DNA from: an uncultured Barnesiella sp.
Lineage (GTDB): Bacteria; Bacteroidota; Bacteroidia; Bacteroidales; Barnesiellaceae
Assembly: GCA_944320015.1 (NCBI GenBank)
Contig: CALUFO010000005.1
Span: 1 to 24,000 of the forward strand
Length of the DNA stretch: 24,000 nt
Direction: 5' to 3'
Part shown: in pieces, positions 3,053-23,664 of the stretch
Layout of the letters: every line of letters starts with the position of its first letter
Position numbering within the stretch: position 1 is the first letter of the stretch
The notes under the pieces: generated by a model
What the model was told of the DNA's origin: nothing
What the model saw: only the letters and a program-made list of their open reading frames with translations
Database searches by the model: none
Made by a program: the position numbers and the translations under genes

Positions 3053-3080
3053 TCTTATCGATATTTCAATTTTAGCAAAT

Positions 3081-3088: not shown

Positions 3089-3108
3089 TAATTCATTTAT
3101 AATGAGAT

Positions 3109-3507: not shown

Positions 3508-3510
3508 GGC

Positions 3511-4191: not shown

Positions 4192-4195
4192 AAAG

Positions 4196-4335: not shown

Positions 4336-4336
4336 G

Positions 4337-4379
4337 AAAAAAAACAGAGGCCGCGCCCCAAAGGGGACACTGCCTCTGT
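4337..4379 (-). terminator. Intrinsic terminator of the 716-aa gene
   Basis: 8-bp stem ACAGAGGC (4344-4351) / GCCTCTGT (4372-4379). The minus strand then reads a run of 7-8 T (plus-strand A run 4337-4343). It lies 26 nt downstream of the stop at 4405. Confidence 0.75.
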
Positions 4380-4404
4380 ACTATGATAAAAGGTAGGAGG
4401 TTGC

Positions 4405-6555
4405 TTAGAATACAACTACTTTTTGGTTGCCGATGACGTAGATGCCGGCGGGCAGGGTTACGATGTTGGAACCCTCGGTGAGTTCGATTTGGCGAACTTG
4501 CGCACCGGTGAGGGCATATACGGCAACGGTAGCGGCTTCGGAGGCTTCGATTGTTACCTGTCCTTTACCGCCGATAATCTTCATACCGGCAACTTCTACG
4601 CTTGCTATACCCGTGGCGGAGCCTTCTTTGATCATAAGGTCGGTAATTTCCCAAGTAGACGCTCCGGCGGTGGTACTTGTATATTTGAAAGCAAAACGGA
4701 TAGGAGCGGTGAGATCTTTCAATTCGATGTCGCCCGATTCGGCCCATTCGAAATAACCCTCAGACCAAGCTGCACGATCGGTAATATTCACCCACTCGGC
4801 GTCGCCGGGTTGCATGGTATTGGGATCATAGTCGCTCGAATAAAGCAGTTCCAATGCATTCCCTTCATAGCTGTAAGCTGAACTGAAATTCAAGATGATG
4901 TTATTGGCGGTTACAGCCGGTGAGATGAGGTAGGCTTCACTGTCGGTATTTTTACCATTGATATACCCGCTTACTTTGGCGCCATATTGAGAATCGGACT
5001 CCCATTGAGCCTCTCCTACGGTGGTGATAGAGAGCCAATCGCCGAGTCCCGATTTGAAGTCGATCGAGTGGGGCAATGAGGCCGACAAAGCCCTTACTGT
5101 CAAGGTATATTGGGCAACGCCTTCGCGATAGGTGTCATCGGCTTCGGTCGTAGCTTTGATAATGGTGGTTCCTGGGCCTACTATGGTCACGAGGCCTTCG
5201 GCGCTAATCGTAGCCACTTCTTGGTCGCTGCTGCTATAAGTAATCGGTTTTTCGGGGGTAGCCGTGGCGGCGCTGTTGTAGGTGAGGCCTTCGGCAAAGA
5301 AGAGGTCTTTGTTGCCGCTCACTTCGTTGAATGTTACTTTTACGTCTTGTTTTCCGTCGTTTTCTTCCAATTTGTAGAGAGTGAGATCTTGTTGCTTGCT
5401 TGATGCCTTATAGCAAGCAAACCATTTAGAGCCGCTGTTGTATTGTAAGAAGCGGTCGGTATATTGTACATTCGTAGCTCGGAATTTATCGTTTTCTATT
5501 GAAAAATTCCATTCACATACTTTGTCTTCAAAATCAGAAAGAGAAGCATCATTACTATTTTCACCGGCAACATAAGTTCCATTATTACTAATGCTTACAC
5601 CGTTCGTTGTTGTAATAATATCCCAAACAATAGAGGCATCGGGGTTAAAAATCGCATCATCATCTGAAACATTGATTGTCGTGGCTGCAATTCTACTACC
5701 ATTGGCTTGGTTTACCATAGCCATGGTATTCTTGTAGGCGATTACATACTTACCATCGGTCAATTCGTCGATAGAAGAGATTTTTGTAAAGATTTTAGCT
5801 GTTGCCGGGTCAATCACGGTCAAGGTATATTCTACGGAAGCGGCATCAAAAGTCTCGGTCTCGGCTACTTCGGCTTTGATCACCGTCGTACCACCGGCAA
5901 CCAGTGTAACAAGCCCCTTTTGATTGATCGTAGCTACCTCGGTGTCGCTACTGCTGTATGTAATAGTGGCATCGGAGACCGTAGTGGCGGCGCTGCTGTA
6001 GCTGCCCTCGGTGAGTTGTTTGGTCACATCGCCCGTGATGTCGGTAAAGGCAAGCTCGGGATTTTGCAACGAGGAACTGGCAATGGGCTTGATATCGATT
6101 TGCGTGATATAGGTGGCTGCGCTACCTGCTTCGATAGTAATACTTGCACTTGGAGATGTTACCGAAAGAGTGAGCGGAGATGCTCCTTGCACCGTATTAT
6201 CGGTGCCGGTTTCTGTAATGGAAGCATCATTTTTAGTACAGTCAAAAGTAATCGTTACATCAAAGCCATTTGAGGTTTCAAAGGTCGGGGAGAGTAATAC
6301 TCCTTTATCACCTTTGAGCTGTATCCGGGCCTTAGTATTTTCGCGCATTACAGATTGAACGAAAGTCCAAGTATAATCTACACCATCGCTACCGACGAAT
6401 ATTTGCTCCCCTTTCGATGCGTCATAGCTGGAGCCTGTTACTTTTGACCAATCGTTAAATGTGACATCTTGTGTAAGAGAAACCGCCCAAGCGGAAGTTC
6501 CACAAAGCAAAGCCACCAATAGGATAGCTGTGCGTAAAAAGTAATTTTTCTTCAT
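4405..6555 (-). CDS. T9SS-secreted surface protein with two Ig-like (Big_2-type) repeats and a C-terminal T9SS sorting domain; function unknown
   Basis: 716 aa. Signal peptide MKKNYFLRTAILLVALLCGTSAWA. Two internal repeats: TYSSSD(T/Q)EVATI...GLVT(L/I)V..GTT(V/I)IKA...YTLTV. The C-terminal ~70 aa (GIASVEVAGMKIIGG...VYALTGAQV...LPAGIYVIGNQKVVVF) fit the T9SS CTD pattern. Confidence 0.8.
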   Translation of the reverse strand: MKKNYFLRTAILLVALLCGTSAWAVSLTQDVTFNDWSKVTGSSYDASKGEQIFVGSDGVDYTWTFVQSVMRENTKARIQLKGDKGVLLSPTFETSNGFDVTITFDCTKNDASITETGTDNTVQGASPLTLSVTSPSASITIEAGSAATYITQIDIKPIASSSLQNPELAFTDITGDVTKQLTEGSYSSAATTVSDATITYSSSDTEVATINQKGLVTLVAGGTTVIKAEVAETETFDAASVEYTLTVIDPATAKIFTKISSIDELTDGKYVIAYKNTMAMVNQANGSRIAATTINVSDDDAIFNPDASIVWDIITTTNGVSISNNGTYVAGENSNDASLSDFEDKVCEWNFSIENDKFRATNVQYTDRFLQYNSGSKWFACYKASSKQQDLTLYKLEENDGKQDVKVTFNEVSGNKDLFFAEGLTYNSAATATPEKPITYSSSDQEVATISAEGLVTIVGPGTTIIKATTEADDTYREGVAQYTLTVRALSASLPHSIDFKSGLGDWLSITTVGEAQWESDSQYGAKVSGYINGKNTDSEAYLISPAVTANNIILNFSSAYSYEGNALELLYSSDYDPNTMQPGDAEWVNITDRAAWSEGYFEWAESGDIELKDLTAPIRFAFKYTSTTAGASTWEITDLMIKEGSATGIASVEVAGMKIIGGKGQVTIEASEAATVAVYALTGAQVRQIELTEGSNIVTLPAGIYVIGNQKVVVF

Positions 6556-6721
6556 AGATATATTGTTTTAGAGTTTATAGTACCTGTTTTTGGTTTATTC
6601 AATCCCTTTCATATAGTCTAACAAAAATATAAAATAGGAATGGAAAGAAAAAGTTTTTTTGTGAGAAAGTTGCGATATTTCACAGAAATGTCATAAGGGT
6701 AGGTTCTTCCGGGGAATTTTC

Positions 6722-6788
6722 TTTACCCCCTCTCCTCGGGACTACCGTTCCTCGGTGTCTCCCCTATATCACTTCGTGACACAGAGGA
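6722..6788 (-). repeat. Reverse-orientation hairpin unit (CAC-GAA-GUG subtype), truncated at its outer end by the family-2 element
   Basis: CCCCCTCTCCTCGGGACTACCGTTCCTCGGTGTCTCCCCTATATCACTTCGTGACACAGAGGA. Core at 6758-6788. It is the reverse complement of the unit at 22021-22085. Confidence 0.8.
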
Positions 6789-6988
6789 TTTCTATTTGTT
6801 CATTCTTCTCAACAGCGAGAAGAACGAACCAAGAAGCGCCGCCGCTGTTATCGGGCTTATTCGCTCGGTCGCTGCTGCCTCCGTCGGGGGTTGCGGAACT
6901 CGCTTCGCTCAGACAGTCCTCGCCCGGGTTCCTCCGCCGGTAGGCGCCCTCCCGGCCCGATAAAGGCGGTTTCCCTACCGGACATGCT
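6780..6988 (+). repeat. GC-rich ~208-bp element, copy A (family 2)
   Basis: Aligns over its full length with the reverse complement of 19651-19857, with about 10 substitutions and one 1-nt indel. Contains the hairpin TTCTTCTC-AACAGC-GAGAAGAA and the core GGGGTTGCGGAACTCGCTTCGCTCAGACAGTCCTCGCCC. Confidence 0.9.
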
Positions 6989-7041
6989 TGCCATTATTTT
7001 TTACCTTTTTCTCTTTGATTTTAAGTGACAAAAGGGATACA

Positions 7042-7225
7042 TTTAAACTCCTCCTCTGTGTTCCCGTAAGGGAATATAGGGGAGGTGGCACGCAGTGACG
7101 GAGGGGTTTAAATGTTTTATGACGGAGGTGGTGCAGCCCTCGGGGGTTAAATCCCGTGAGGGGGTTGTAAATTCTATTTGAGCCTCGCAAGAGACGGAGG
7201 GGAAGTGCCCGTTAGGGGGCGAGAG
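7042..7225 (+). repeat. Archetypal forward hairpin unit (7042-7112) plus a string of 3' modules
   Basis: TTTAAACTCCTCCTCTGTGTTCCCGTAAGGGAATATAGGGGAGGTGGCACGCAGTGACGGAGGGGTTTAAA. Core at 7050-7085. Followed by GACGGAGGTGGTGCAGCCCTCGGGGGTTAAAT and GACGGAGGGGAAGTGCCCGTTAGGGGGCGAGAG, running up to the ispF stop. Confidence 0.85.
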
Positions 7226-7705: not shown

Positions 7706-8901
7706 CGGCGGCCTACCAATTCTTTAAGTCCGTCCATATCGAACGAGAGGGTGAAACGGAGGGTTTGGTCGAGCGGGCTGGTTTGAGCCGTGGCTACCAT
7801 GTAGGCGGCGTCGATTTTCAGCACGTTGAGCGAGAAGCCGGCTCCGAAGGCAAAGTATTTGCGGTTACCCTTGTATTTGTCTTCGTGGAAGTATCCGGCG
7901 CGGAGGAAGAATTGTTGGTTGTAGGAGTATTCGGCTCCGATGGAGAAATTGATCTCGCGCAACTCTTCTTTGAATCCGCCGGGAGCGTCGCTGAACGATT
8001 GGAATATACCGGTGATGGGCGAGGTGTTTTGCCATTTTTCCTTGGCCTCTTCATACTCGGCGTCGGTCTCGTAGTTGGCGACTTGCGGAGTCGAGGGAAC
8101 CAGCAACTTGTTGAGGTCGAGGTTGAGCGCCAGCGTGTTGTAGTCGGCCAGCGGGAAGAGGAACGAGGTACCTATGCGCAGGTTGGTGGGGAGGAAGGCG
8201 CTTTCGTTGCCGCCGTCGTAGGACACTTTTGTACCGATGTTGGAGATGTTGAAACCCAGCGACCACTGGCATTCATTGCGTCCTATGATCGGATAGGTGG
8301 TGTAGTATCCCGAGATGTCGGCGGCGAAGGCCGAGGCTCCCGAGGCGTCGGATACGCTCGACTCGTCGTAGTGGAATCCCAAGTCGGAATAGATGTAGCG
8401 GAAGACGACACCCATCGAGAATTTATCGGAGAGTTTGCGGGAGTATCCTACGTCGAACGCCATTTCGTAGGGGGTGATGCTGTTTTGCGCGTTGCCTTGG
8501 TTGTCGGTGAGGACGATTTCGCCGAGCGAGAAGTATCGTAGCGAGGCGCTAAGGGCTTGCAAGTCGCTGCTGCCGATTTTCCAGTATCCGGCCAAATAGG
8601 CGAGGTAGATGTCGTTGACCAGTTTGCGCAGCCACGGGGTGTAGGATAGCGACACTCCTGCTTGGCTGTAAGCGAAGGCATATTTGGAGGGGTTCCAAAA
8701 CTGTGAGTTTACGTCGGGGTCGGTAGCCACGCCCAAGTCGCCCATCGAGGCGCCGCGGGAGTCGGGGGTGATGCCCAGCGAGGTGATACCCGTGTTGATG
8801 GGGTTAAATTCGTTCGCCGCGTTTCCGTCGGCGGCATATGTCCCGGCGGGCAAAAGCAGCGACACGAGCATGACGGGTATGATATAAAAAAGTCGTTTCA
8901 T
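7702..8901 (-). CDS. porV: T9SS outer-membrane beta-barrel protein PorV (LptO)
   Basis: 399 aa. Signal peptide, then the PorV-like N-terminal motif SRGASMGDLGVATDPDVNSQFWNPSKYAF, alternating beta-strand character and an aromatic-rich C-terminus. It lies immediately downstream of porU, as in described Bacteroidetes loci. Confidence 0.85.
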   Translation of the reverse strand: MKRLFYIIPVMLVSLLLPAGTYAADGNAANEFNPINTGITSLGITPDSRGASMGDLGVATDPDVNSQFWNPSKYAFAYSQAGVSLSYTPWLRKLVNDIYLAYLAGYWKIGSSDLQALSASLRYFSLGEIVLTDNQGNAQNSITPYEMAFDVGYSRKLSDKFSMGVVFRYIYSDLGFHYDESSVSDASGASAFAADISGYYTTYPIIGRNECQWSLGFNISNIGTKVSYDGGNESAFLPTNLRIGTSFLFPLADYNTLALNLDLNKLLVPSTPQVANYETDAEYEEAKEKWQNTSPITGIFQSFSDAPGGFKEELREINFSIGAEYSYNQQFFLRAGYFHEDKYKGNRKYFAFGAGFSLNVLKIDAAYMVATAQTSPLDQTLRFTLSFDMDGLKELVGRR

Positions 8902-8954: not shown

Positions 8955-11900
8955 TTATTGCGTGATGACGACTATTTTTTTTGTGGGGGTGGCTATTGTC
9001 CCGGTCGATGTCTCGAAGTATCCCCGGCAATAATATTGCCCGGCGGGCACCCGCTTGCCGCTGGTGTCGCGGAGGTGCCAGATGACGGGGAAGGGGTTGC
9101 TGCCTGACTCGTACGTCCATACTTCTTGTCCCAGATTGTCGGTAATGGAGACGAGCGCCCGTTTCAAGTCGGCGATTTCGTTTCCGTCTTGGTCTTGGCA
9201 CGAGAGCGTGGCTTTCTCGGTTATGGGATTCTCGGCCACCGATAGTGTATAGGTATCGTCACCGCCGTTTATTCTAAACGAGATCGAGGACTCTGATGAG
9301 TTCCCCAATGAGTCGAATACTTTGAAGGTGAGCGTGTGCGGCCCGTCGGATAAATGGGGCAGCGGGTATATAAACTCGCCCCCGGGAATATCGCTGTCGG
9401 TCATGGGCGAGTAGTAGTGCAGGGTGTTTTCTCCGATGCTTCCGCCGTCGAGCCACAGGGTCATTTGCCGTCCCAAGCCATTGCCTGTCCATATCCCGGA
9501 GGGATCGGAGAATCGGCAGATAAAGGTCGCGGGATTGTGGTACAACTCGCCCTCGGCAAACGATTCGTCGTTTAGCCCGATAAATTCGATTTGCGGGCCT
9601 TGTGTCTCTTTTGCCGTTGTTTCGCTGTCTGTGCCAATCAGCAGTTGTTCGGTATATCCGTTGGCTTCCCGGCCGGTTTCGTCGTAGGCGTACAGGTTGA
9701 GCAAACCCGATTTCCCCGAGCGGGAGTTTTCGGCCGGCAATATGATGGTCGTTTTGAATAGCCCGTTTCGCACTGTCCCTTTGCCTGTGGACAACAGGTC
9801 GGGGCGGTATTTATAGGTCCAAGTCTGGTCGTCTTGGTTGCCGAGCGTCGTGAATGTTTTCTCCTCGTCGTAGAGCGAGTAGAATATTTCACCGTTGAAA
9901 TCTGAGAGCAATTTGTTTTGGTAGGAGCGTATTTCGCCCTCGATCGTATAGCTTCCGCCGGGAATCAATTCTACCGGGTCGCCGCTGCTATTCCCGTTTA
10001 TTTGGGTGACTTGTATTGTGTGTTCGGGGTAGGTCAGTTTCAACGCCGGGTCGCCGATGAGAATATAGTTGAGCTTGTTTTTGTCGATTTCGTTGTTGAA
10101 GTCGCGCTTGGCTAATCGGAGTATGTCGCCGACTCGCACGGGTTTACCGTCGGAGTCCCGGTCGAGCAGGCGTTTCATCAGCCGGCGGTTGATTTTGTCG
10201 TTCCCGTCGGTATATACGACACGGGTGGTGGTGATCAGTCCTATGGCTCCACCGGTAGGATTGAGGAATACCGACTCGCCGGACGAAAACTCGTTCTCGT
10301 CGTCGAACTGGGTGTAGTTGCAAGTAACTGTGATAAAGAGCGGTAGCCGGCTGTTGTCGAGGTTGTCCATTTCGACCCGTGAGAGGAGCCCTTCACCGGT
10401 GAGTCCCACTTCGGGGTCGTTGTGCCCGATATAGTTGAAGACGAGCATTCCATCTTCAAATTGTTTCATCAGTTCCCGGTTGGCGTCGTGGTTCTTTTTG
10501 GAGACGGGGTCTAAGTGGTAGGAGTCGATGAAGATTTTGTTTACCCTGAATTGCAACCTTGGGTTTGCGGTGTTTTTAAGCAGCAGAGTGTCGCTCCCCA
10601 TATCGGCCTGCTCGGTGTGAATCGCTTCGTCGCCGTCGTCGGCAGCTACGCAAATGCTGTTTTTCCACGGAGAAAAGTCGGTGTTGCCTACATATCGATA
10701 CATTTTATCGACCACCAATTGCGCCTCTTTGACCGACGTTACGGGGAACCGCCCGATGCCCAGACACACTTTGTCGACTTTTATTTCGGTGCCCGTGTTG
10801 TCTTCCAAGAAGCCAAAATAATCTTCCAGCACAAAGGACTCCCGCTCGTCGATGCTGGTTTTGGATTGGTAGGTCAGCAGCATGTTGCACTCGGGGGTGT
10901 GCAGTGACGTCATGGCCTTGCGGTTATCGTAGGAGCCGTCGCCGAACAGGAGCAGGTAGCGAGGCTGTGGATTCGAGCCGTTGGCCCGGTCGTAGAACAT
11001 CTTCATGAGCCTCCGGTAGGCTGTCGCGTCGGGAGTTCCCGAGGAAAATTCGTTGAATATTTTTTCTTGTTCGACCACAACGGCCGTGAGGCCCTCGGCT
11101 CGATGCAACTGCGCCATTCGTTCGGCTTGGTCTTGGAACGCCGCCGGGGTGATGATGGTGAGGTCGGCGATGTCCAAGGCGTGTAAGTTCTGGTTCTCGA
11201 TTTTCCGCACGAAAACGGGCGAGGGGAAATCCCGTTGGGTATCGAAAGCGATAAATTCGCGCAGCTGAGTGTCTTCGGGCGCAAACGAGCAAACCCCGTT
11301 TTCAAAGGAGGTGAGTATGTTTTTGGGGGCGTGAGGGGTGGTGACGTCCCATACCCGTGTAGACTCGGTGCATTGCCCTATTTGGTAATAGTTGCCGCTG
11401 GAGCGGTCGATGAACCGGAATGACACCTGCCCGTCGTATAGTTGCAGCTTGCGTGTGTAGTTGAGCCTTATATAGTCGAGATGGGCGCAAGAGGTGACAC
11501 CGGTGCTGGAATAGCGCAGGCCTATGGTCGAGGTTTCCGAGGCTTCTTCGGCCGTTTTGATAGGAGAGATTTGCCGGAGGAACTCGTGTGTGTCGTAATA
11601 TTTTGTAATCCGGTTGGAGGTGTTGACCGGCAGGTCGACACCGTTGTAAGAGATGTATATATACCCCTCGGCGTCGCTAATCTTCGCACCGAACGATACC
11701 CTTATTTTTATGGACTTGGGCAGTGCGCCGGGCAAATGAAATGTAAACTCTTGGCTGGGATCCGACAAGAAATCTTCTCCAAAGAAATTTTGCCCGGTAC
11801 GACCCACCGAAATCAACTCTTTCTCGTGAATCGTATAGTCGTTGAACGAAGATACCGCGGTCGTATTCTCTCCTGTGGGGAGGGGTGTCGAAACAGTGGG

Positions 11901-12362
11901 AAACGGGGTTTCGGCAGTCTCCTTATCGGTCAGGAAGTAGTAGGCGTGGGTCGAGTAGGGGTGGAGCCGATGAATAAATTCTTGGTTGTAGGGGTCGAGC
12001 TCCCATAGGGTCGTTCCTGTCGAATAGAAGTAGAGTTTGCCGTCTTGTCGCCACAGCGGTATTTGGGGCAAATCGTCGATATAATCGTCGTCGTTTGAGA
12101 AGAGTTCGTCGATGACGAGCCCGCCGTACCCGAAGAGCTTTACTTTCGAGGGGTCGGAGAATCCCCACGCTTTCAAAGAGTCGTCGGATATTTGGTAAAT
12201 CCCGGCGTCGGTAGTCGATATTTTTACCCAATTGCCTTCGGCCAAAACCGAACTTGCCGCATAGTCGCTGCTACTTCGCCCGTGTGCGGGGAGAAGCGTG
12301 ACTATGGCGCATATTATCGTGAGCAATATGGGCGTTTTTCGTATGGTGCGAGTCATTGGCAT
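8955..12362 (-). CDS. porU: T9SS sortase PorU (peptidase C25 / gingipain family)
   Basis: About 1135 aa. Its size, its position upstream of porV, and the gingipain-like dyad context (YIGHN... and RLPLFITVTCNY) support PorU. It keeps its own C-terminal beta-rich domain. The track start at 12383 is a TTG that overlaps the upstream gene, so I prefer ATG 12362 (or 12356), which gives MPMTRTIRKTPILLTIICAIVTLLPAHG as the signal peptide. Confidence 0.85.
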   Translation of the reverse strand: MPMTRTIRKTPILLTIICAIVTLLPAHGRSSSDYAASSVLAEGNWVKISTTDAGIYQISDDSLKAWGFSDPSKVKLFGYGGLVIDELFSNDDDYIDDLPQIPLWRQDGKLYFYSTGTTLWELDPYNQEFIHRLHPYSTHAYYFLTDKETAETPFPTVSTPLPTGENTTAVSSFNDYTIHEKELISVGRTGQNFFGEDFLSDPSQEFTFHLPGALPKSIKIRVSFGAKISDAEGYIYISYNGVDLPVNTSNRITKYYDTHEFLRQISPIKTAEEASETSTIGLRYSSTGVTSCAHLDYIRLNYTRKLQLYDGQVSFRFIDRSSGNYYQIGQCTESTRVWDVTTPHAPKNILTSFENGVCSFAPEDTQLREFIAFDTQRDFPSPVFVRKIENQNLHALDIADLTIITPAAFQDQAERMAQLHRAEGLTAVVVEQEKIFNEFSSGTPDATAYRRLMKMFYDRANGSNPQPRYLLLFGDGSYDNRKAMTSLHTPECNMLLTYQSKTSIDERESFVLEDYFGFLEDNTGTEIKVDKVCLGIGRFPVTSVKEAQLVVDKMYRYVGNTDFSPWKNSICVAADDGDEAIHTEQADMGSDTLLLKNTANPRLQFRVNKIFIDSYHLDPVSKKNHDANRELMKQFEDGMLVFNYIGHNDPEVGLTGEGLLSRVEMDNLDNSRLPLFITVTCNYTQFDDENEFSSGESVFLNPTGGAIGLITTTRVVYTDGNDKINRRLMKRLLDRDSDGKPVRVGDILRLAKRDFNNEIDKNKLNYILIGDPALKLTYPEHTIQVTQINGNSSGDPVELIPGGSYTIEGEIRSYQNKLLSDFNGEIFYSLYDEEKTFTTLGNQDDQTWTYKYRPDLLSTGKGTVRNGLFKTTIILPAENSRSGKSGLLNLYAYDETGREANGYTEQLLIGTDSETTAKETQGPQIEFIGLNDESFAEGELYHNPATFICRFSDPSGIWTGNGLGRQMTLWLDGGSIGENTLHYYSPMTDSDIPGGEFIYPLPHLSDGPHTLTFKVFDSLGNSSESSISFRINGGDDTYTLSVAENPITEKATLSCQDQDGNEIADLKRALVSITDNLGQEVWTYESGSNPFPVIWHLRDTSGKRVPAGQYYCRGYFETSTGTIATPTKKIVVITQ

Positions 12363-12372
12363 GAATGGATTG

Positions 12373-12990
12373 CTATTTGACAAAGAAGTCGAGAACTTTG
12401 GTTTCCCCCAAATATCCCACGAGGTGGTCGCCTATTTTTACGGGGCCTACACCCGCCGGGGTTCCGGTGAAGATGATGTCTCCGATCTTCAAGGTATAGA
12501 ATTGGCTGACATAGGCGATAATCTCGTCGATGTGAAAAATCATGTCGTTGCTGTTCCCGCGCTGGACGGTGGTGCCGTTGATCGATAACGAGAAGTCTAA
12601 GTTGTCGGCTTTGCGGGGTTGATCGGGCAGCGGTAAGAACTGTCCGATAGGAGCCGAGTAGTCAAAACCCTTGGCGATGTCCCACGGGCTGCCCGAGGCG
12701 CGCGCCTCGGCCTGTTTGTCCCGGGCGGTGAAATCGATCCCTACGGTGACGGCGTCGTAGTAGCGGTGCGCAAATTTGGGGGCGATATTTTTCCCCAACC
12801 GCGAAATGTGAAATACCAGCTCGGTCTCGTATTCGATGCGGTCGGAGAACTGAGGCAGGAAGAACGGTTTCCCGTTTTTTAGCAGGGCAGTCTCGGGTTT
12901 CAGAAAGACAACCGGATAGGGCGGAATGTCTGTTCGATTCATTTCCGCGTTATGAGCATTGTAGTTCCAACCGACGGCGATTATTTTCAT
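12373..12990 (-). CDS. Fumarylacetoacetate hydrolase (FAH) family protein
   Basis: 205 aa. Motifs E(T)ELVFHI, GIDFTARDKQ...GSPWDIAKGFD and IIFTGTPAGVGPVKIGD are typical of the FAH / 2-keto-4-pentenoate hydratase fold. Confidence 0.85.
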   Translation of the reverse strand: MKIIAVGWNYNAHNAEMNRTDIPPYPVVFLKPETALLKNGKPFFLPQFSDRIEYETELVFHISRLGKNIAPKFAHRYYDAVTVGIDFTARDKQAEARASGSPWDIAKGFDYSAPIGQFLPLPDQPRKADNLDFSLSINGTTVQRGNSNDMIFHIDEIIAYVSQFYTLKIGDIIFTGTPAGVGPVKIGDHLVGYLGETKVLDFFVK

Positions 12991-13656: not shown

Positions 13657-13818
13657 TTTTTCAACGACAAAGATAGTGAAAGGTAAGTGTAGAGACAAAC
13701 GGAAAATGAAGTTTTCACGTTTGTTTATGCCGAACCGCCTCTTATTTTCGTGAACAAAGGTAATGAAAGGAGGGCGTAGAGGCAGGTGGGGAACGAAGTT
13801 TTCACGTTTGTGGTAACC
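13657..13818 (-). repeat. Diverged tandem duplication (~87-bp period) of the rex upstream region
   Basis: 13657-13730 aligns with 13744-13818 at roughly 70 percent identity. Both copies share the exact 17-mer GAAGTTTTCACGTTTGT (13709-13725, 13795-13811) and a TAnnTTTG box on the minus strand (TATCTTTG, TACCTTTG). Confidence 0.7.
13668..13699 (-). promoter_or_regulatory. Candidate Bacteroidetes-type promoter for rex
   Basis: The minus strand reads TTTG (13699-13696), a 20-nt spacer, then TATCTTTG (13675-13668). It lies 24 nt upstream of ATG 13644. Confidence 0.5.
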
Positions 13819-14165
13819 TTTAAACTCTCCCTCTGTGGGTTACTAACGACAGGTGAAATATTTAAACTCCTCCTCTGTGTTTTGCGGAGCAAAATATAGG
13901 GGAGGTGGTGCAGCCGGAGGGGTTGAAACTCTGTGTTTACAGCAACTGGCAAGGGTATGCATTTAAACTCCTCCTCTGTGTTTTGCGAAGCAAAATATAG
14001 AGGAGGTGCCCGTTAGGGCGGAGGGGTTTAAAGTGCTTTATCACAGTTTTTTAGCCTCTTGGTTTTCAACCCCTCTCCTCGGGACGTGTGTCACCCTCGG
14101 TTTCTCCCCTATATGGTTGGCACCACACAGGGGAGAAGTGAAGATAGTTTAAACTCCTCCGCCCC
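13818..14165. repeat. Dense stem-loop repeat mosaic (family 1): two forward units, one reverse unit, fragments
   Basis: Cores at 13869-13905 (GGA loop), 13970-14006 (GAA loop, with a compensated U-A pair) and 14102-14137 (reverse, GGU-GCCA-ACC subtype). A 5' fragment at 13818-13850. The TTTACAGCAACTGGCAAGG module at 13936-13954. Confidence 0.85.
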
Positions 14166-14221
14166 ACTGATTTTCTACGGCCCAGAAATTTTTCTAAAAT
14201 AGAATGAAATAGACATAATTG

Positions 14222-14261
14222 TTTGCTAATTTGGAAACAAAGCAACTATTTTTGTAGTTGC
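14222..14261 (+). promoter_or_regulatory. Candidate promoter with overlapping palindromic operator for the XRE gene
   Basis: TTTG at 14222-14225 and TATTTTTG (TAnnTTTG) at 14247-14254. A perfect 7-bp inverted repeat GCAACTA-N6-TAGTTGC (14242-14261) straddles the -7 box, about 30 nt upstream of the ATG. This layout is typical of autoregulated HTH genes. Confidence 0.5.
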
Positions 14262-14288
14262 AACTTTTAAAAATAAAAAGTAGCAGAT

Positions 14289-14621
14289 ATGGCAAAGATG
14301 AATTTCACACCAGCAGACAAATTGATAGATGATGTATGGGGGAAGGTGGGCACTCCCGAAAGAGATGCTATGGAAGCTCAACTCAAAGAAGATATACAAG
14401 CCTACTTTGTCGGTGAGGCGATTAAAAAAGCGCGTCTTAAACAAAACCTCACACAGGAGGAATTAGGCAAAAAGATAGGCGTGAAACGTTCTCAAATTTG
14501 CAAGTTGGAGAGTGGTAAATGTTCTATAACTCTTTCCACGATGAGTAGGGTATTTCAGGCTTTGGGAATTGCAACGGCTACACTCGATTTAGGAATAGGT
14601 GGAAAGGTCGCTTTGTGGTAA
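14289..14621 (+). CDS. XRE-family HTH protein, HigA-like antitoxin type, with no adjacent toxin gene
   Basis: 110 aa. The C-terminal half LKQNLTQEELGKKIGVKRSQICKLESGKCSITLSTMSRVFQALG is a Cro/C1-type HTH. The N-terminal extension (FTPADKLIDDVWGKVGTPERD...) is as seen in antitoxin-type XRE proteins. Confidence 0.75.
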   Translation: MAKMNFTPADKLIDDVWGKVGTPERDAMEAQLKEDIQAYFVGEAIKKARLKQNLTQEELGKKIGVKRSQICKLESGKCSITLSTMSRVFQALGIATATLDLGIGGKVALW

Positions 14622-14642
14622 GCATATAATGTGGGAATTATT

Positions 14643-14677
14643 AAGGAGGAGGATACAAAACACCCTCCTCCTTTTTA
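14643..14677. terminator. Bidirectional intrinsic terminator between convergent genes
   Basis: 10-bp stem AAGGAGGAGG (14643-14652) / CCTCCTCCTT (14664-14673), followed by TTT. It is flanked by A/T on both sides and sits between the XRE stop (14621) and the lipoprotein stop (14698). Confidence 0.75.
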
Positions 14678-14697
14678 TCGCTTTTATAAACGCTATT

Positions 14698-15192
14698 CTA
14701 TTGCATAGGTTTTAAATAATCCAAAAATTTTATACTGTTATCATTTGCTTTGCTTATGGACGGATTCTTTGTGACCATTGTTTCTTCGTCCAGTATAATA
14801 TTTATATTGTCACCTTTTTTGATTACTCCTAATGACGCTATGTATAGTCTTGCATTTGAAGATAAATCATAAAACGGAGATTCTGGAGGAACCGCTTTAA
14901 ATGAAACTTGAACCTTAGAGCATGATTCTTGAACTTGTATAGCTTTTGATCTTCCGCCGCCATATGGTATATCATCTATGTTTATTTGCCCGATGTTGAT
15001 TCCATTTTCGTCTAATTCAAATGCGACAACTTCATACATTGTACCATTCAAGTATTCGTCTAAACTTGTTTCATATTTTTCTGAATTGTTGATAATGGTA
15101 AATGTTGAAATAGACGGCTCATCATCTTTTGAGCAGCCTGCAAACATAAATAAAACAGCCAACAAAGGCAGCATAAATGGTATTTTCTTCAT
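14698..15192 (-). CDS. Hypothetical small lipoprotein
   Basis: 164 aa. Signal peptide with lipobox MKKIPFMLPLLAVLFMFAGC. AT-rich. I recognise no family. Confidence 0.7.
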   Translation of the reverse strand: MKKIPFMLPLLAVLFMFAGCSKDDEPSISTFTIINNSEKYETSLDEYLNGTMYEVVAFELDENGINIGQINIDDIPYGGGRSKAIQVQESCSKVQVSFKAVPPESPFYDLSSNARLYIASLGVIKKGDNINIILDEETMVTKNPSISKANDNSIKFLDYLKPMQ

Positions 15193-15231
15193 TTTACATT
15201 GATTTTATCGATTAAACATTCGGATTCAACA

Positions 15232-15602
15232 TTATTTTCTTATATAGACAACGCTCTCTCCTCCCTGCGAAATATGTAACTTGTTATTCTGTATCACATA
15301 ATTGACTGTGCTGCTCGTTGAAGTTCCACCCTGCTTCATGAGTGCCGTAATGGTAGTCTCGGTTGCATTCCATGTAAATGATATTCTCGAACTCTCCTCT
15401 ACCTCACCATAAAACTCCATCCATTGATCTCCTGTTTTATCAGCTCGAAACTCTATATTATAGACTTCGTACTCCGATTTGGTATCCTCTACTCACAGAC
15501 CAACCAACTGCTGTTCATAGTCATTGACAGCATCGTCATCAGAGCAGGAAACAATAAAAAGCATGGGCAACATCGCGGCCAGCATAAAATGATTTTTCTC
15601 AT
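15232..15602 (-). pseudogene. Disrupted lipocalin-like lipoprotein gene (in-frame TGA plus probable 5' frameshift)
   Basis: My translation from ATG 15585: MLAAMLPMLFIVSCSDDDAVNDYEQQLVGL*VEDTKSEYEVYNIEFRADKTGDQWMEFYGE..., which continues in frame into the track ORF 15232..15420. The stop is TGA at 15493-15495, where the LxGxW context predicts TGG (Trp). The better signal-peptide start MRKII (ATG 15602) is in another frame. Confidence 0.65.
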
Positions 15603-15861
15603 AATTGCATTTTTAAATTGTGGTTATCTTTAATTACTTTAACTTAACGGCTGTAGAATCATAACAAATATAAAAAGTTCAATTCTGTTTGTCATAATTT
15701 TGTTTGAAATTTTAATATTATTTATGAAAGATATATCACTTTCCTTATTGTAAATCAAGGAATGGGAGTCCTGAGGATAGAACTGAAAGAGATGTAAAAC
15801 ACTGTATATGAGAGTGCTGTAAACTATTAGTCCGTGTGATGAGGAGGTTAAAAGCGACTTC

Positions 15862-18800
15862 TTACTGGCCGGTTACGCACAATTTCTTGGTGCGAGTGGT
15901 CTCGTGCTGGTTGTCGGTCGAGATAATGGCTTTGTACAGATAGATTCCGCCGGGGACCCTGCTGCCGCTGCTGTTTGTCAAATCCCATGTGACAGGATAG
16001 GACCGATACATGTCGGAGAGCCCTTTGCCGGTGTATCGCCATACTTCCACGCCCATGAGGTTGTAGACGCATATCGTTACATTTATCAACGCTTCGGGGC
16101 GATTGTGCCTCAAATAGAAGTTGGTCGATGTGCTGGCGGGGTTTTGGTCGGCATATAGGTCATAGATAACCGGTTTCAGCCCTTGTTCTACGGCGAAGGC
16201 GATTTCCACCTCCGACGAATTGTTCTCGGTATCCCATATTTTCAGGCGCAGGGTGTGCTCGCCGTCGCTTAATCCGTCCAGCGGGTAGGCGATAGAGCCT
16301 CGTCCAAACTCGCCTAACGCAGGCTCGAAGTAGGAGGCCACATCGGTATATACGGTCTGGTCGTCGAGTGTCACGGTCATCTGGTGGCCGATACCGGCGT
16401 CGGAGATATTCAATCCCGACTCGTCGAATACTTCGGCGATTAACAGCGGCGATTCATTGACTATGTCGCCGTTCTCGAAGTCCTCGGAATTGAGGTAGGC
16501 GTAGTATATTTCGGGCCCTTCGAAATCCTCGTTGGAGGAGTCGTTGAACCCGCCGACGATGAAATTCGATTCGTTTCCGCTTCCCTCTTGACCCTCGTCG
16601 TTGTAGCAATAGAGGTTTATGAGGCCTTTGTCATCGGCGAAGTTGATTTCCCGGGGAACTTTGAATGCGATTTCGAAAGTCCCGTTGACGATAGAGTCTT
16701 TGCCTACGAATAGCCGGTTGCTCCGTTGCTTGAACTCGATGGCTTCTCCCTGCTCGCCGTATCCATGGGTTACGGTGGTGATTTCCGAGTCGTAGACAGT
16801 GGGATAGATGACCCCGTTGTAGTCGGTCGCCTTTTCTCCCGAGGGGGTATATATCTCCCCTTTTATGGATACCGAGTCTCTCGCCTGTATGGTAGGGGTT
16901 GTTTGTGTGATGTCGAAACCGTTCACCTCGGTCACTTTTATTTGGTAATCGGGATATAATAGCCGCAAGGCCGGGTCGCCCAGCAGGGTGTAGTTCAGCT
17001 TGTTGCTGTCGGTCTGTTGGATATTGCATTTGGCTTCGCGCAGAATATCGCCGAGGCGGGGATATTCGAGGTTTTCGTCTTTTTTGAAGATTTCCCGGGC
17101 GATGCCGCTATTGATGTAGTGGTTGTCGCTGATGTAGACGACCCGGGTGGTGGTGATGAGCGCGATGCCGCCTCCGTCGGGGTTCAGGCACAGGATTTCG
17201 CCGGCCGAGGTGCTCTCGTGGTCATAGCGCCCGAAGTCGCAAGTGGCCGTGATGAACAGCGGTAGCCGTTTCAAGTACATCGATTGTATGTCGGTGATGT
17301 TCAGCAAATTCTCGTGAGTCCATGCGACCGTGCTGCCGTGCCCGATGTAGTCGATGACCAGCACCCCGTCGTCCAAGACTTGGAGCAATTTCTTTTTGGC
17401 GGCGGGATATGTGCGCCCTGTGGAGGCGATTTCGGCCGTATAGGCGTCGATGTAGATTTTGTTGATAAAGCAGTGTGCGTCGCTGTTTTCCAGTATGGAG
17501 CAAATGTCTTCGGCTTGTTTCATGTGCGCCGCGTAGTTTTCGTCGTCGGCGACGACGCAAACTTGGTTTTTCCACGTCCCTTTGTCGCTGTTGTGGACGT
17601 AGTTGTAGAGTTTGTTTACCACATTTTGGGCTTCTTGCTCGCTTTGCACGGGCAGCCGCCCTACGCTCACACGGAGTTTGTCGGCGGCGATGGTTTGCCC
17701 GGAGTTGTCGTCGAGAAACCCGAAGTAGTCGTCGGTCGTATAGGAGGCCCGTTCGTCGGTGCCGGTGCCGTGCTGGTAAGTCAGCAGAGTGGGATATTTC
17801 ACATATTTGCCGGTTTCGCCTATTTTGCGATTGTCATATAGTCCTTTCCCGAAAAGCAGCAGGTATAGCTGTTTGCCGTTGGTGCCGCCTTCGCGGTCGA
17901 AAAACATTTTCATCAGCCGGCGATAGGCTGTGGCGTCGGGCGTACCCGAAGAAAACTCGTTGAACACGGTCTCGTGGTCGATGACGGCGACTTCCATGCC
18001 GTCGACTTCTTGGTGCAACCGGGCAATCTCTTCGGCATAGGCGATGTATTCTTTGGGAGTGAGAATCACCATGTCGGGGGTAGCCATGCCGTGCAGGTCT
18101 TGGTTGGCCACGGTCTCGATAAACTCTACCGAAGCCACGGTGGCCTGCTCGTCAAAAGCGATGTATTCTTCGTTATCCTTGGTGGGAACAAAACGGGCGT
18201 TGCCGTTGTCGTTACGGGGGATAATGTTTACAGGCTGTTGGGGGTTTGAGATGTCCCAAATGTGGATTGCCGGGGTATAGCCTTGCAGGCTGTAACAGCC
18301 ATTCTCGGGGAGTTGGGCCAACCTGAATTGAAGGCTCCCGTTGTAGAGTTGCAGCTTGCGCTTGTAGTTGAACCGGAAGTAGTCGAGGCGGGCTAAGGTG
18401 AGGCTCCCCCTGTTTTGCCGGAACAGCAGGTTGAAGTCGAGTTCTTCGCTGTCGAGGTAGATCTCTTTGAGCGTGGAGGTCGTTTTCACAAAATCGTAGG
18501 AACTTTCCGACCCCGACGAGATATTGTCGGTGTTGCTCTCGGGCAGAGTTTCGCCGTTGTGGGTGAAGATGAGCTTGCTGTTCCCACCTACCACTTTCGC
18601 GCCGAATGCCGTGCGCAGCTTTACCGGCGCCGAATTGTCTACTCCCGGTAATTCGAACGTGAAGTCCTGTGAGGCGTTGTAGCGGAAGTCCTCGCCTAAG
18701 AATAGCCGACCGGTCGAGCCGGGAGAGTATAGGTCTTGTTCATAAACGGCATGCTCGTCAAACGAGGTAATGTCGGTCATGCCGTCTGTGGCGCCGCCGT

Positions 18801-19293
18801 CGCGCTCGGACAACGTGGCGGTCTTGCTTTTGCTATCGGTGAGGAAGTAGTATCCGGCGATAGAATAAGGATTCTGCTCGTGGGAGTACTCGCCCGATCG
18901 CGAGTCGTATTTCCACGAAATAGGCCCTTGTGCGTAGAAAAGTATTTTGCTGTCGGTGTAGACGACCGGTATTTGGGGCAGGTCGTCAATATCGTTTTCA
19001 GAGAAAGTCTCGGGCAAAATGGCACCGCCATATCCAAACACAGTTACGGCCGAAGGATCGGAGAATCCCCATTTGCTCAGTTCTTGGTAGGTGATTTGAT
19101 GAATCCCCGACTCGTAAACGGCCACTTTCACCCACAGGCCGTCGGCCAGTTGCGAGTGCGAGGCGTAATGGTCGGCATTCAGCGCATGCGCCGTCGCCGA
19201 GACAAGAAGCGTCACGCACAGGCATATACCTGTGCGCAAGCGTCGCAGCGGGTTTGTAGTGAGTATATTATAATGTTTTACAATCTCTTTCAT
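15862..19293 (-). CDS. Second PorU-like peptidase C25 paralogue (about 1143 aa)
   Basis: Same length and architecture as porU. Shared blocks EFSSGTPDATAYRRLMKMF, LLLFG.G.YDNRK, RLPLFIT.TC and KLNY.L.GDPAL.L.YP. Gingipain-like IDYIGHGSTVAW and LFITATCDF. I prefer ATG 19293 (MKEIVKHYN...RRLRTGICLCVTLLVSATAHA), because the 35-codon track extension runs into a repeat unit. Confidence 0.85.
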   Translation of the reverse strand: MKEIVKHYNILTTNPLRRLRTGICLCVTLLVSATAHALNADHYASHSQLADGLWVKVAVYESGIHQITYQELSKWGFSDPSAVTVFGYGGAILPETFSENDIDDLPQIPVVYTDSKILFYAQGPISWKYDSRSGEYSHEQNPYSIAGYYFLTDSKSKTATLSERDGGATDGMTDITSFDEHAVYEQDLYSPGSTGRLFLGEDFRYNASQDFTFELPGVDNSAPVKLRTAFGAKVVGGNSKLIFTHNGETLPESNTDNISSGSESSYDFVKTTSTLKEIYLDSEELDFNLLFRQNRGSLTLARLDYFRFNYKRKLQLYNGSLQFRLAQLPENGCYSLQGYTPAIHIWDISNPQQPVNIIPRNDNGNARFVPTKDNEEYIAFDEQATVASVEFIETVANQDLHGMATPDMVILTPKEYIAYAEEIARLHQEVDGMEVAVIDHETVFNEFSSGTPDATAYRRLMKMFFDREGGTNGKQLYLLLFGKGLYDNRKIGETGKYVKYPTLLTYQHGTGTDERASYTTDDYFGFLDDNSGQTIAADKLRVSVGRLPVQSEQEAQNVVNKLYNYVHNSDKGTWKNQVCVVADDENYAAHMKQAEDICSILENSDAHCFINKIYIDAYTAEIASTGRTYPAAKKKLLQVLDDGVLVIDYIGHGSTVAWTHENLLNITDIQSMYLKRLPLFITATCDFGRYDHESTSAGEILCLNPDGGGIALITTTRVVYISDNHYINSGIAREIFKKDENLEYPRLGDILREAKCNIQQTDSNKLNYTLLGDPALRLLYPDYQIKVTEVNGFDITQTTPTIQARDSVSIKGEIYTPSGEKATDYNGVIYPTVYDSEITTVTHGYGEQGEAIEFKQRSNRLFVGKDSIVNGTFEIAFKVPREINFADDKGLINLYCYNDEGQEGSGNESNFIVGGFNDSSNEDFEGPEIYYAYLNSEDFENGDIVNESPLLIAEVFDESGLNISDAGIGHQMTVTLDDQTVYTDVASYFEPALGEFGRGSIAYPLDGLSDGEHTLRLKIWDTENNSSEVEIAFAVEQGLKPVIYDLYADQNPASTSTNFYLRHNRPEALINVTICVYNLMGVEVWRYTGKGLSDMYRSYPVTWDLTNSSGSRVPGGIYLYKAIISTDNQHETTRTKKLCVTGQ

Positions 19294-19374
19294 GTATCCT
19301 ATATAACGCAAAACCTCCCGAATTATTGCCGCAGGTAAAAATATTCGTTTGTTCTTCTCAGCGGTAGGTAGCAA

Positions 19375-19650
19375 ACTCTCCCTCTGTGCCCCTTGCAATC
19401 GGTAAGTGGATACTTTTAAACTCCCCTCTATGTTCCCGTAAGGGAATATAGGGGAGTGCCGTAGCGAGGGGGTTGAATCTCCTCTGCGTTTACTATAATC
19501 GGCAAGGCGGTACTTTCATTTAAACTCCTCCCCTGTGTTTTGCGGAGCAAAATATAGGGGAGGTGTCACGCAGTGACGGAGGGGTTTAAATGTTTTTATA
19601 ACAGCCATATAGGGGAGACACCGAGGAGAGGGGTTGAAAAAATAGCAAAC
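19375..19650 (+). repeat. Stem-loop repeat mosaic (family 1): two complete forward units plus fragments
   Basis: Cores at 19421-19456 (GUAA subtype) and 19527-19563 (GGA subtype, with U->C making a C-G pair). The GUCAC-GCA-GUGAC second hairpin at 19565-19577. The TTTACTATAATCGGCAAGG module at 19489-19507. A 3' partial unit at 19591-19645. Confidence 0.85.
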
Positions 19651-19857
19651 ATGTCCGGCAGGGAAAACCGCCTTTATCGGGCCGGGAGGACGCCTGCCGG
19701 CGGAGGAAACAGGGCGAGGACTGTCTGAGCGAAGCGAGTTCCGCAGCCCCCGACGGCGGCAGCGGCGGCCGAGCGAATAAGCCCGATAACAGCGGCGGCG
19801 CTTCTTGGTTCCTTCTTCTCGCTGTTGAGAAGAATGAACAAATAGAAATCCTCTGTG
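19651..19857 (-). repeat. GC-rich ~208-bp element, copy B (family 2), inverted relative to copy A
   Basis: Its reverse complement aligns end to end with 6780-6988 at about 95 percent identity, block by block by eye. Confidence 0.9.
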
Positions 19858-19910
19858 TTTTGCGGAGCAAAATATAGGGGAGGTGTCACGCAGTTTACGG
19901 AGGGGCTTAA
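19849..19910 (+). repeat. Forward hairpin unit abutting family-2 copy B
   Basis: UCCUCUGUGUUUUGC-GGA-GCAAAAUAUAGGGGAGG at 19849-19883, followed by TGTCACGCAGTTTACGGAGGGGCTTAAAC. Confidence 0.8.
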
Positions 19911-20051
19911 ACGCTCATATACAGATTCCTAAGTTCTCGGAGGGGATTAAAGAAAAAAGGGATTGGACACAAAGGGAAAGCGGCGCACGGGGGGAGGAGA
20001 GGTTCCATTCTCCCCTGTGTCACGACAGTGATAAAAGGGAAACTCCGAGCC

Positions 20052-21833: not shown

Positions 21834-21901
21834 TCCTCCTCCCGGTGGAAGATTCCGGGCGAGGACTGTTTGAGCGCAGCGAGTTCCGCAGCCCCCGACG
21901 G
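21834..21901 (-). repeat. Partial copy of the family-2 core
   Basis: GGGCGAGGACTGTTTGAGCGCAGCGAGTTCCGCAGCCCCCGACGG, against GGGCGAGGACTGTCTGAGCGAAGCGAGTTCCGCAGCCCCCGACGG at 19712-19756. Two substitutions, same orientation as copy B. Confidence 0.75.
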
Positions 21902-21959
21902 TATCCAATTGCGGCTTTCGTTCGACGACCTGCTTTGATGGGGTCAGTAGAGAATCTGC

Positions 21960-22320
21960 ATGAGAGGGGTTGAAAGAATAATGAATTTAGCAAGCTGTAT
22001 ATAAGGGCATTTTAAACTTCTCCTCTGTGTCACGAAGTGATATAGGGGAGACACCGAGGAACAACAGTTCCGAGGAGAGGGGTTAAAATCCATAGAATCA
22101 AAGCTGTATGAAAGAGAGATTTAAACCCCTCCGTCACTGCGTGACACCTCCCCTATATTTTGCTCCACAAAACACAGGGGAGGAGTTTAGAACAACCCCC
22201 TCGGCACATTAAAGTGCCACTCCCCCTATATTTCCCTTACGGGAACACAGAGGGAGAGTTTAAAAGTCCCGTCTTGCCGTTTGCAGTAACCGCAGGAGAG
22301 GGAGTGTAATTACCCTTAAC
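21960..22320. repeat. Stem-loop repeat mosaic (family 1): one forward and two reverse units
   Basis: Cores at 22029-22061 (forward, CAC-GAA-GUG), 22157-22193 (reverse, GGA subtype) and 22230-22268 (reverse, GUAA subtype). The TCTTGCCGTTTGCAGTAA module at 22282-22299. Confidence 0.85.
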
Positions 22321-23375: not shown

Positions 23376-23664
23376 ATACTGTTCCTCCTTGTGATTATAT
23401 GATTTCTACTTTCGACCCGGATCGTGCGTCGAAATTTCTCTGTAATTCCACTCTCCCCGAGGCATCGACCCGCAACGATCCGCCACTTTGCACGGTTCCA
23501 CCGATAAAAAACACATTGCCTTGGCTTTTGAAATGAATTATCAATTTTGTTTTTTATAGTAATAAATATAATTATTTATTGTAAGAAAGTAAGATAATAA
23601 AATGCAATTATTCTTAAAAGAGGATATTGTGCATTTAGAAGATGTGATTGTAGAGTTTATTCTT

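Follow-up and report, generated by a model that had tools for sequence, protein, structure and literature searches.

The DNA analyzed here (the window) is a stretch of 24,000 nucleotides from an uncultured Barnesiella sp. (assembly GCA_944320015.1, contig CALUFO010000005.1, positions 1 to 24,000 of the forward strand). It carries genes for tRNA-Pro, AraC, rplU, rpmA, ferredoxin, a DUF559 protein, a Big_2 protein, ispF, PorV and PorU, as well as FAA hydrolase, Rex, a helix-turn-helix (HTH) protein, a second PorU-like protein, RadC, a GT2 glycosyltransferase and efp. The intergenic gaps of this gut Barnesiella-like bacterium are filled by a DNA repeat of about 75 bases that features two hairpins, here called the unit. 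Units sit between the genes of the window, and singlets, pairs and arrays of them are found in most long gaps. The unit, and the small DUF559 gene that lies between two of its copies, are the subject of this report.

Two boxes of the unit recur in the window. With up to 3 mismatches allowed, the 20-mer 5' box TTTAAACTCCTCCTCTGTGT has 18 matches where 100 shuffles predict 0; the 3' box GGAGGGGTTTAAA, with up to 2 allowed, has 27 where 1.0 is expected. A covariance model of 77 positions and 30 base pairs (R1) was built from eight gap-free units of the window and run unfiltered. R1 finds 19 distinct copies in the window, 13 on the + and 6 on the − strand, exactly the hairpin cores that a first-pass annotation had listed in both orientations, and scores on the correct strand are 2–4 times those on the reverse strand. 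The cores had been placed outside credible coding sequences, and the sole R1 match within a gene is indeed weak (8646–8700, E 0.27). When the model was run on the window plus 52 related loci (396 kb), 126 matches were obtained. In a scan that covered one genome per species, the core turned up in 52 stretches of contig, and the source in every case is a gut metagenome-assembled genome (MAG) of Barnesiella or Barnesiellaceae type, about 10 species being represented. The intergenic bias holds in this larger set, 11 of 100 cores lying inside open reading frames (ORFs) of at least 150 codons, though such ORFs make up 81% of the bases (binomial P ~3e-52). The orientation of the units, as given by R1 positions, is mixed, both relative to genes and among units. 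Rfam gave no match at gathering score across the window, and only chance-level matches in E-value mode on two repeat tracts. The repeat observation is confirmed, and the family is new relative to Rfam and the literature searched, in line with the early remark that no named RNA family was recognised. A strict core was also found once in each of five viral or prophage contigs (L185–L189) among 2.9 million in IMG/VR, an uninformative result.

The unit starts, 5' to 3', with a closing arm, TTTAAAC, followed by a long hairpin made up by CCTCCTCTGTGT, a stem of 3–6 bp with a GNA or GNRA loop, and ATATAGGGGAGG. Next come TG, a second small stem-loop, and C-GGAGGGGTT-TAAA, which pairs back onto the 5' arm. 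The long hairpin spans 15–17 bp, and its tip is freely variable in sequence yet paired; the conserved box of the unit is GAGGGGTT. Units can be further distinguished into subtype A (GGTG...CGGAGGGGTTTAAA), subtype A' (CTCTCCC...GGGGGAG...GAGGGGGTT) and subtype B, which has a CTTCTCC...GGAGAA hairpin with ACCGAGG, a stem-loop and CCGAGGAGAGGGGTTGAAAA. The copies found in the window are the following (bits and E values from R1, unless another source is named):

2262–2320, − strand: two pieces of unit separated by a linker module, namely a 5' end (GGGGAAGGAGTTTAAAT) and a 5' half that is truncated (CACAGCGGGAGAGTTTAGA)
2322–2404, + strand: type B unit (36.4 bits, E 1e-8)
2953–3029, + strand: type A unit, upstream arm of DUF559 (93.5 bits)
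3109–3507, + strand: DUF559 gene (PF04480, E 1e-26), 132 amino acids (aa), Vsr-like PD-(D/E)xK endonuclease and candidate enzyme partner of the units
3508–3579, − strand: type A' unit, downstream arm of DUF559, inverted relative to the upstream arm (51.3 bits)
3553–4191, + strand: tandem array, 3.0 copies of a 213-bp block (Tandem Repeats Finder, 99% matches, score 1271)
3673–3749, 3886–3962 and 4099–4175, + strand: type A units within the array, one per block (93.5 bits each)
4202–4267, + strand: type B unit with truncated 3' module (22.2 bits, E 2e-4)
6717–6790, − strand: type B unit, 5'-truncated and joined to a GC-rich repeat about 220 bp long (core 6760–6788)
7039–7114, + strand: type A unit with a GTAA-loop tip (83.8 bits)
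7193–7225, + strand: 3' part of a unit (second stem-loop and G box); the unit is intact here in strains without a 4.9-kb segment
13819–13838, + strand: 5' half of a unit, boundary of a strain-variable 2-kb segment
13858–13930, + strand: type A unit (77.6 bits)
13959–14034, + strand: type A unit (80.9 bits)
14062–14147, − strand: type B unit, facing the 13959–14034 unit over 27 bp (36.2 bits)
14148–14160, + strand: 5' end fragment (TTTAAACTCCTCC)
19412–19480, + strand: A'-like unit (32.5 bits)
19516–19592, + strand: type A unit, top match of the window (101.1 bits, E 9e-28)
19600–19640, + strand: 3' fragment of a type B unit
19839–19913, + strand: type A unit, 5'-truncated at the same point as that ending at 6790 and fused to the GC-rich repeat (43.5 bits)
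22008–22090, + strand: type B unit (42.5 bits)
22118–22194, − strand: type A unit (97.5 bits)
22195–22264, − strand: type A' unit (41 bits)
23654–23723, − strand: type A' unit with a degenerate 3' box (36.5 bits)

The tract 13818–14165, described in the first pass as two forward units, one reverse unit and fragments, is made up as stated, a 5' half and a 5' fragment included. The first-pass description of a modular stem-loop family forming mosaics in most long gaps, akin to bacterial interspersed mosaic elements (BIMEs), is supported. A recurring linker, GTTTAC..AA..GGCAAGG or its complement CCTGCCG.TTAC, lies between or beside units and resembles the linkers of enterobacterial BIMEs (13930–13958, 19485–19512, 2283–2300 on the − strand, 22270–22300 on the − strand, and 4270–4290). 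The 213-bp block of the array is present also upstream of DUF559 (2854–3047), and an ORF at 3549–4133 overlapping several units is an artefact of the tandem array. The GC-rich repeat of about 220 bp is unrelated to the unit; its two full copies (6779–7000 on the −, 19637–19858 on the + strand) are 93.7% identical, with a partial copy at 21845–21905 and no Rfam match, and both abut a 5'-truncated hairpin unit at the identical nucleotide (AAATAGAAAT|CCTCTGTGT).

Pairing was monitored in 120 distinct R1-matched sequences from about 10 species. Cells are paired in 91.8% of cases, versus 78.3% in shuffles and 46–64% when the 3' partners are slid, and two-sided changes occur in 431 cells versus 129 expected. 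The long hairpin is the best paired helix (97.9%), followed by the second stem-loop (93.7%) and the closing stem (76%). The hairpin tip comes in 45 sequence variants, almost all still paired, and the outermost pair of the long hairpin is C-G in some subfamilies and G-C in others. Two-sided changes are found at all 8 pairs of the closing stem, TTTAAAC(T)...(G)GTTTAAA, and the outer ends are thus imperfect inverted repeats, as had been noted. Two G.T/G.U wobbles are near-invariant (111 and 102 of the 120 sequences) and almost never replaced by Watson-Crick pairs, which makes the unit strand-asymmetric. Folding reflects the asymmetry. In the 19516–19592 unit the forward strand reaches −23.2 kcal/mol as DNA (z −7.7) and −39.4 as RNA (z −7.1), against −19.9 and −31.1 for the reverse strand; the values for a second unit are −18.4 vs. 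−11.4 kcal/mol as DNA, and −38.6 vs. −24.1 as RNA.

Stable folds raise the question of whether the units act at the RNA level, transcribed units serving to stabilise mRNA, as sites of processing or termination, or as small RNAs, and the wobbles reflecting RNA pairing. All 12 core pairs are RNA-compatible on the forward strand only, folding reaches −39 kcal/mol with z about −7, GNRA-type loops are common, and repetitive extragenic palindromic (REP) sequences of E. coli stabilise mRNA. Yet the orientation of the units is inconsistent with that of flanking genes, both orientations being found in one gap, and units reside in divergent-promoter and convergent-terminator gaps alike. The hairpins are not followed by a U run, and Rfam gave no match. 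The near-absence of Watson-Crick replacements at the wobbles points to sequence recognition rather than pairing alone, and cGNAg triloops are classic stable DNA mini-hairpins. An RNA function, moreover, gives no reason for units bracketing DUF559, and we regard it as highly improbable. A cis-regulatory RNA is specifically disfavoured by the inconsistent orientation.

The DUF559 protein of the window matches PF04480 with 93.4 bits versus a cut-off of 20.6. In the PDB, a profile of 11 relatives hits 3HRL (E 3e-25), an 'endonuclease-like protein', and also 3R3P (E 8e-4), which is I-Bth0305I, an intron-encoded homing endonuclease of the Vsr-like type. Residues D54, E65, D67 and H71 are invariant among the 11 relatives, and the gene apparently encodes an intact nuclease. 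Surveys of the PD-(D/E)xK superfamily class Vsr, DUF559 and DUF2726 together (PMC3424549; PMC1189080). The term 'DUF559 domain-containing protein' is 14-fold enriched among predicted targets of programmed inversion (PMC9881135), which is what flanking inverted repeats would produce. The first-pass statement that the window lacks any transposase is incomplete, in that it overlooks the DUF559 nuclease gene.

In the window, the upstream + unit ends 80 bp before the DUF559 start codon, with a TAnnTTTG promoter-like motif in between, and the downstream − unit begins 1 bp past the stop codon. This unit-DUF559-unit layout was found in 9 of the 9 DUF559 loci inspected individually. Species-representative loci totalling 372 kb contain a single DUF559 homologue (L021), whose protein is 56% identical and whose layout is the same, and four more homologues (54–76% identity), residing in four different gene neighbourhoods, have a + unit upstream and a − unit just downstream. 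In three outgroup loci of Bacteroidota, from a B. helcogenes-type genome, a Bacteroidia MAG and 'Bacteroidetes GWF2_42_66', DUF559 lies between units built alike, with a C-rich/G-rich hairpin, TG, a second stem-loop and then GGGGTGGTA. At one outgroup locus, where the cassette occupies a gap within a cobalamin operon, the arms are 78 nt long with 90% complementarity. Most close DUF559 homologues are found on contigs of 0.5–1.2 kb and several are truncated (80–97 aa), which fits assemblies that break off at the repeats on either side, and copies that have decayed.

When metagenomes were scanned with a DUF559 alignment, 80 loci were obtained, their origins being gut, soil, freshwater and marine samples. 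Flanks of sufficient length were available at 68 of them, and at 53 of these 68 a repeat common to both flanks scores higher than any of 86 shifted controls, which were mostly coding DNA (median 44 vs. 20). The arms are built like those of the outgroup loci. Where both are adjacent to the gene, the upstream one ends about 25–50 bp before the start codon, and the downstream one overlaps the stop codon or starts within some 10 bp of it; at other loci the arms lie 60–200 bp from DUF559. R1 provides an objective test on these loci, because it was built from Barnesiellaceae units only. On 72 outgroup and metagenome loci it gave 60 full-length matches, 46 of which are within 200 bp of DUF559 and none inside the gene. 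Near DUF559, orientations are 17 + and 6 − upstream, 5 + and 18 − downstream (Fisher P 9e-4). DUF559 is associated across distant bacteria with units that mostly point toward it; the enzymology proposed below is inferred. The literature searched holds no account of repeats flanking DUF559. Three unrelated metagenome DUF559 contigs (L114, at 352–1738, L106 and L143) carry 4–7 extra units within 2–4 kb, and amplification is therefore not unique to Barnesiellaceae.

The idea that the wobbles are the T:G-mismatch target of a Vsr-like nuclease was rejected as a general rule, since they belong to an extension specific to Barnesiellaceae; it is also undercut by most outgroup arms, which have perfectly paired CCCCTCC/GGAGGGG stems.

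Variation at the units was assessed by comparing the window with metagenome contigs of conspecific strains, whose genes are 97–100% identical. A 4.9-kb segment (2255–7193) and a 2-kb segment (13818–15841) are each missing in some strains; the boundaries of both fall inside unit sequence, and each empty allele has a single unit at the site. Homology to the empty-site strains stops at 2255. The 2-kb segment carries an HTH-XRE gene and a 164-aa ORF, and is replaced by a palindromic unit (TTTAACCTCCTCC...GGAGGAGGTTAAA); strain L005 shows a clean deletion, 14627 being joined to 15862. A block of 4.25 kb (2475–6719; ferredoxin, DUF559 and Big_2), whose right end is the 6717–6790 unit, is found in conspecific strains at another chromosomal site, between DnaX-AsnC-Cys/Met PLP (pyridoxal phosphate) enzyme genes and TPR-OmpA genes, rpmA and ispF being adjacent in those strains. 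One sample yields both the empty rpmA|ispF site (L004) and the block elsewhere (L175), and the block appears to be a translocated segment. The 213-bp tandem block varies from 1 to 2 or 3 copies among conspecific strains, and an array has 2 vs. 4 units in a related species. A break in gene order downstream of RadC falls at a repeat tract (19400–20050); several strains have RadC, 11 bp and then a GDSL lipase gene in place of the tract and the PorU-like gene. The latter (15862–19398) and the PorU gene at 8955–12383, part of a conserved PorU-PorV-ispF cluster, are paralogous C25 peptidase genes of type IX secretion lying 3.5 kb apart.

Further variation was observed within orthologous units, in which clustered, compensatory module swaps occur amid flanks about 99% identical. 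In the orthologue of the 23654–23723 unit the tip changed from TCCCGTAAGGGA to TTCCTGAAAGGA and is still paired; in that of the 22118–22194 unit, in a 97%-identical strain, the second stem-loop changed from GTCACGCAGTGAC to GGCGTAGCC. Such swaps are the signature of gene conversion among family members.

The explanation we favour, and to which we give about even confidence, is that the repeats are a DNA-level family similar to REPs and BIMEs and the amplified, non-coding partners of the DUF559 nuclease. The basic module is a cassette of about 0.5 kb, unit, DUF559 and inverted unit, present in many bacteria. In this Barnesiellaceae lineage the first hairpin has become longer, and units have proliferated to form the singlets, pairs and arrays seen in most long gaps. 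The nuclease may recognise the unit in double-stranded form, or as a hairpin that is extruded or single-stranded, the forward strand folding better, and would nick or cut there. Repair templated by another unit would spread and homogenise modules, let arrays expand or contract, and occasionally capture or move flanking DNA. Cutting by DUF559 and repair from other units, which we infer, would account for the tip swaps, for the one to three copies of the tandem block, and for the kilobase segments bounded by units.

Several points weigh against this explanation. The link between DUF559 and the units is purely associative. Flank similarity at DUF559 is equal in direct and inverted comparison (Smith-Waterman medians 37 vs. 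41.5); since the arms are largely palindromic, the claim that they face inward rests on the asymmetric model R1 and on a motif count. The shifted controls for repeats common to both flanks were mostly coding. A PD-(D/E)xK hydrolase is incapable of strand transfer by itself, and copying out to new sites would need host functions. Comparison of strains and of cassette flanks did not reveal a consistent target-site duplication (L119 and L121 have none, L088 one possible AT-rich duplication of about 10 bp). Dense units bracket other genes as well, such as Big_2 at 4405–6555. The window and the loci with Pfam-annotated gene calls hold no HUH/Y1_Tnp gene, that is, no REP-associated tyrosine transposase (RAYT), whole genomes not having been scanned, and a RAYT or other transposase may lie elsewhere in the genome.

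Some of these points would equally suit an ordinary REP/BIME-like or palindromic family, spread by host recombination or by an enzyme encoded elsewhere, for instance a RAYT, with DUF559 as a passenger: either a selfish homing-type nuclease gene landing in or between units, or an accessory gene of repeat-rich islands. The bracketing of other genes and the equal direct and inverted similarity fit this view, as do islands that also hold fdx, Big_2 and HTH genes, and neighbouring units that have no preferred pairing (14 +−, 19 same-strand and 9 −+ neighbours). Bacteroidetes, moreover, carry RAYTs of subclass 2.6 with atypical REPs (PMC6006769). Against it, the unit-DUF559-unit layout is kept across phyla-level distances while the unit sequence shifts by lineage, and outgroup units cluster at DUF559 (the 46 of 60 above) instead of in the remaining gaps between genes on those contigs. 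The REPs published for subclass 2.6, simple hairpins of 8–10 bp with a GCTAG foot, are unlike the unit, and the loci covered carry no HUH gene. On balance a passenger DUF559 is unlikely, though it is the main rival. An excess of facing doublets, as in REPINs (REP doublets forming hairpins), was looked for among the same neighbours and not found.

The terminal repeats and strain data also bear on the origin as a miniature inverted-repeat transposable element (MITE) suggested in the first pass, namely a deletion derivative of a DDE-type insertion sequence residing elsewhere and moved via the TTTAAAC...GTTTAAA terminal inverted repeats. The part concerning the ends stands: terminal inverted repeats exist and pair, and the size is typical. 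Truncated halves, nested insertions, and the GC-rich repeat joined to units at the same point twice can be read in the same sense. A classical MITE is not established, as no consistent target-site duplication was found, and the window and Pfam-annotated loci hold no transposase gene. The terminal repeat is the least conserved helix, paired at 76% and differing by subfamily, whereas the internal hairpins and the GAGGGGTT box are conserved; the entity that repeats is the single unit, not a pair of left and right ends. The unit-DUF559-unit cassette has ends in common with the units, and DUF559 is not a known transposase. A MITE origin is, in our judgement, improbable.

If units and DUF559 nuclease are indeed partners, their conserved pairing would give DUF559 a testable function. 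We know of no function assigned to this large family, which includes ycjD of E. coli K-12; to our knowledge, many intergenic repeat families of bacteria, Box C among them, are also without known origin, and Box C without known function. The pair would represent a second, mechanistically different case of a genome-resident nuclease maintaining its own population of non-coding repeats, and would explain strain-level rearrangements, tandem expansions and assembly breaks at these sites in gut Bacteroidales. The units, for their part, fragment metagenome assemblies, many DUF559 homologues being found on contigs shorter than 1 kb, and mark hot spots of strain variation.

Among known systems, the closest parallel is the REP/REPIN/BIME-RAYT system ('REPtron') of Enterobacteria and Pseudomonas. 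Both feature short, structured, high-copy intergenic repeats found in both orientations and in mosaics, and a presumed enzyme gene bracketed by inverted repeat copies, the sequence varying by lineage while the layout is kept. REPs, too, were first tied to RAYTs by evidence of association (PMC2817692, PMC3116915). The enzyme and the repeat differ. DUF559 is a Vsr-like PD-(D/E)xK hydrolase of about 125 aa, RAYTs are HUH Y1 transposases, and the chemistry of spread must therefore differ. The unit, of about 75 nt, combines two hairpins with a closing stem and a G-rich 3' box, against the 20–40 nt footed hairpin of REPs. Classical REPs have a GT[AG]G or CGTC foot (PMC3733652); the unit has no GTAG or CGTC foot, GTAG-like strings being found in variable loops only. 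The units form mosaics with recurring linker modules, but their orientation, on the neighbour counts above, does not regularly alternate as it does in BIMEs, and there is no sequence relation to PU (palindromic unit)/REP sequences.

The same phylum has 'atypical REPs', those associated with RAYTs of subclass 2.6 (Quentin et al. 2018, PMC6006769). Like the units, these lack the GTAG foot, flank an enzyme gene and recur at other places in the genome, but they are single hairpins of 8–10 bp with GCTAG or GCTGG feet (Table S1, PMC6006769), and the enzyme is of another family. The identification of the unit as a published RAYT-associated REP of Bacteroidetes was rejected, as sequence and architecture are dissimilar. 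Vsr-like EDxHD homing endonucleases (I-Bth0305I) share the nuclease fold, the nature of a small selfish gene at a specific sequence and signatures of gene conversion; they reside, however, in group I introns or inteins at one conserved target gene, whereas DUF559 is free-standing between dispersed structured repeats.

In E. coli, the DUF559 gene ycjD lies between sapF and fabI, alongside a hairpin repeat with a G-rich tail (CCCCTCTGGGGAGAGGGTTAGGGTGAGGGG) which we take to be Box C, first noted upstream of envM/fabI. This repeat is found in all 5426 E. coli genomes (median 18 per genome, range 1–32), and BoxC is described as 56 bp long and present in 32 copies (PMC2267715). The likeness to the units is one of architecture only, a C-rich/G-rich hairpin and then a G-rich tail beside a DUF559 gene. 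A clear copy is found on one side of ycjD only, and R1 gives the ycjD-side copy 6 bits (E ~4, not significant), so that ycjD/Box C is a lead, not a result. The arms of one metagenome DUF559 locus (L139) are near-identical to the ycjD-side repeat. In E. coli K-12 (L174; NC_000913.3, 1351040–1351830), ycjD is followed by an apparent duplicated fragment of its own 3' end and by the G-rich hairpin repeat; in other E. coli lineages the site of ycjD is occupied by eefRABCD (PMC12817139).

Set against these systems, the repeat and DUF559 may form a previously undescribed repeat-plus-enzyme pair comparable to REP-RAYT, and the family is best filed as of the repeat-plus-dedicated-nuclease kind, rather than as a member of REP/RAYT, BIME or classical MITE. 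Tentatively, DUF559 and its flanking two-hairpin units can be viewed as a widespread, unrecognised class of this kind, the PD-(D/E)xK counterpart of REP-RAYT, ranging from Bacteroidota to Proteobacteria and perhaps including E. coli YcjD/Box C, that would shape the DNA between genes as the nuclease triggers gene conversion, arrays expand and segments are captured.

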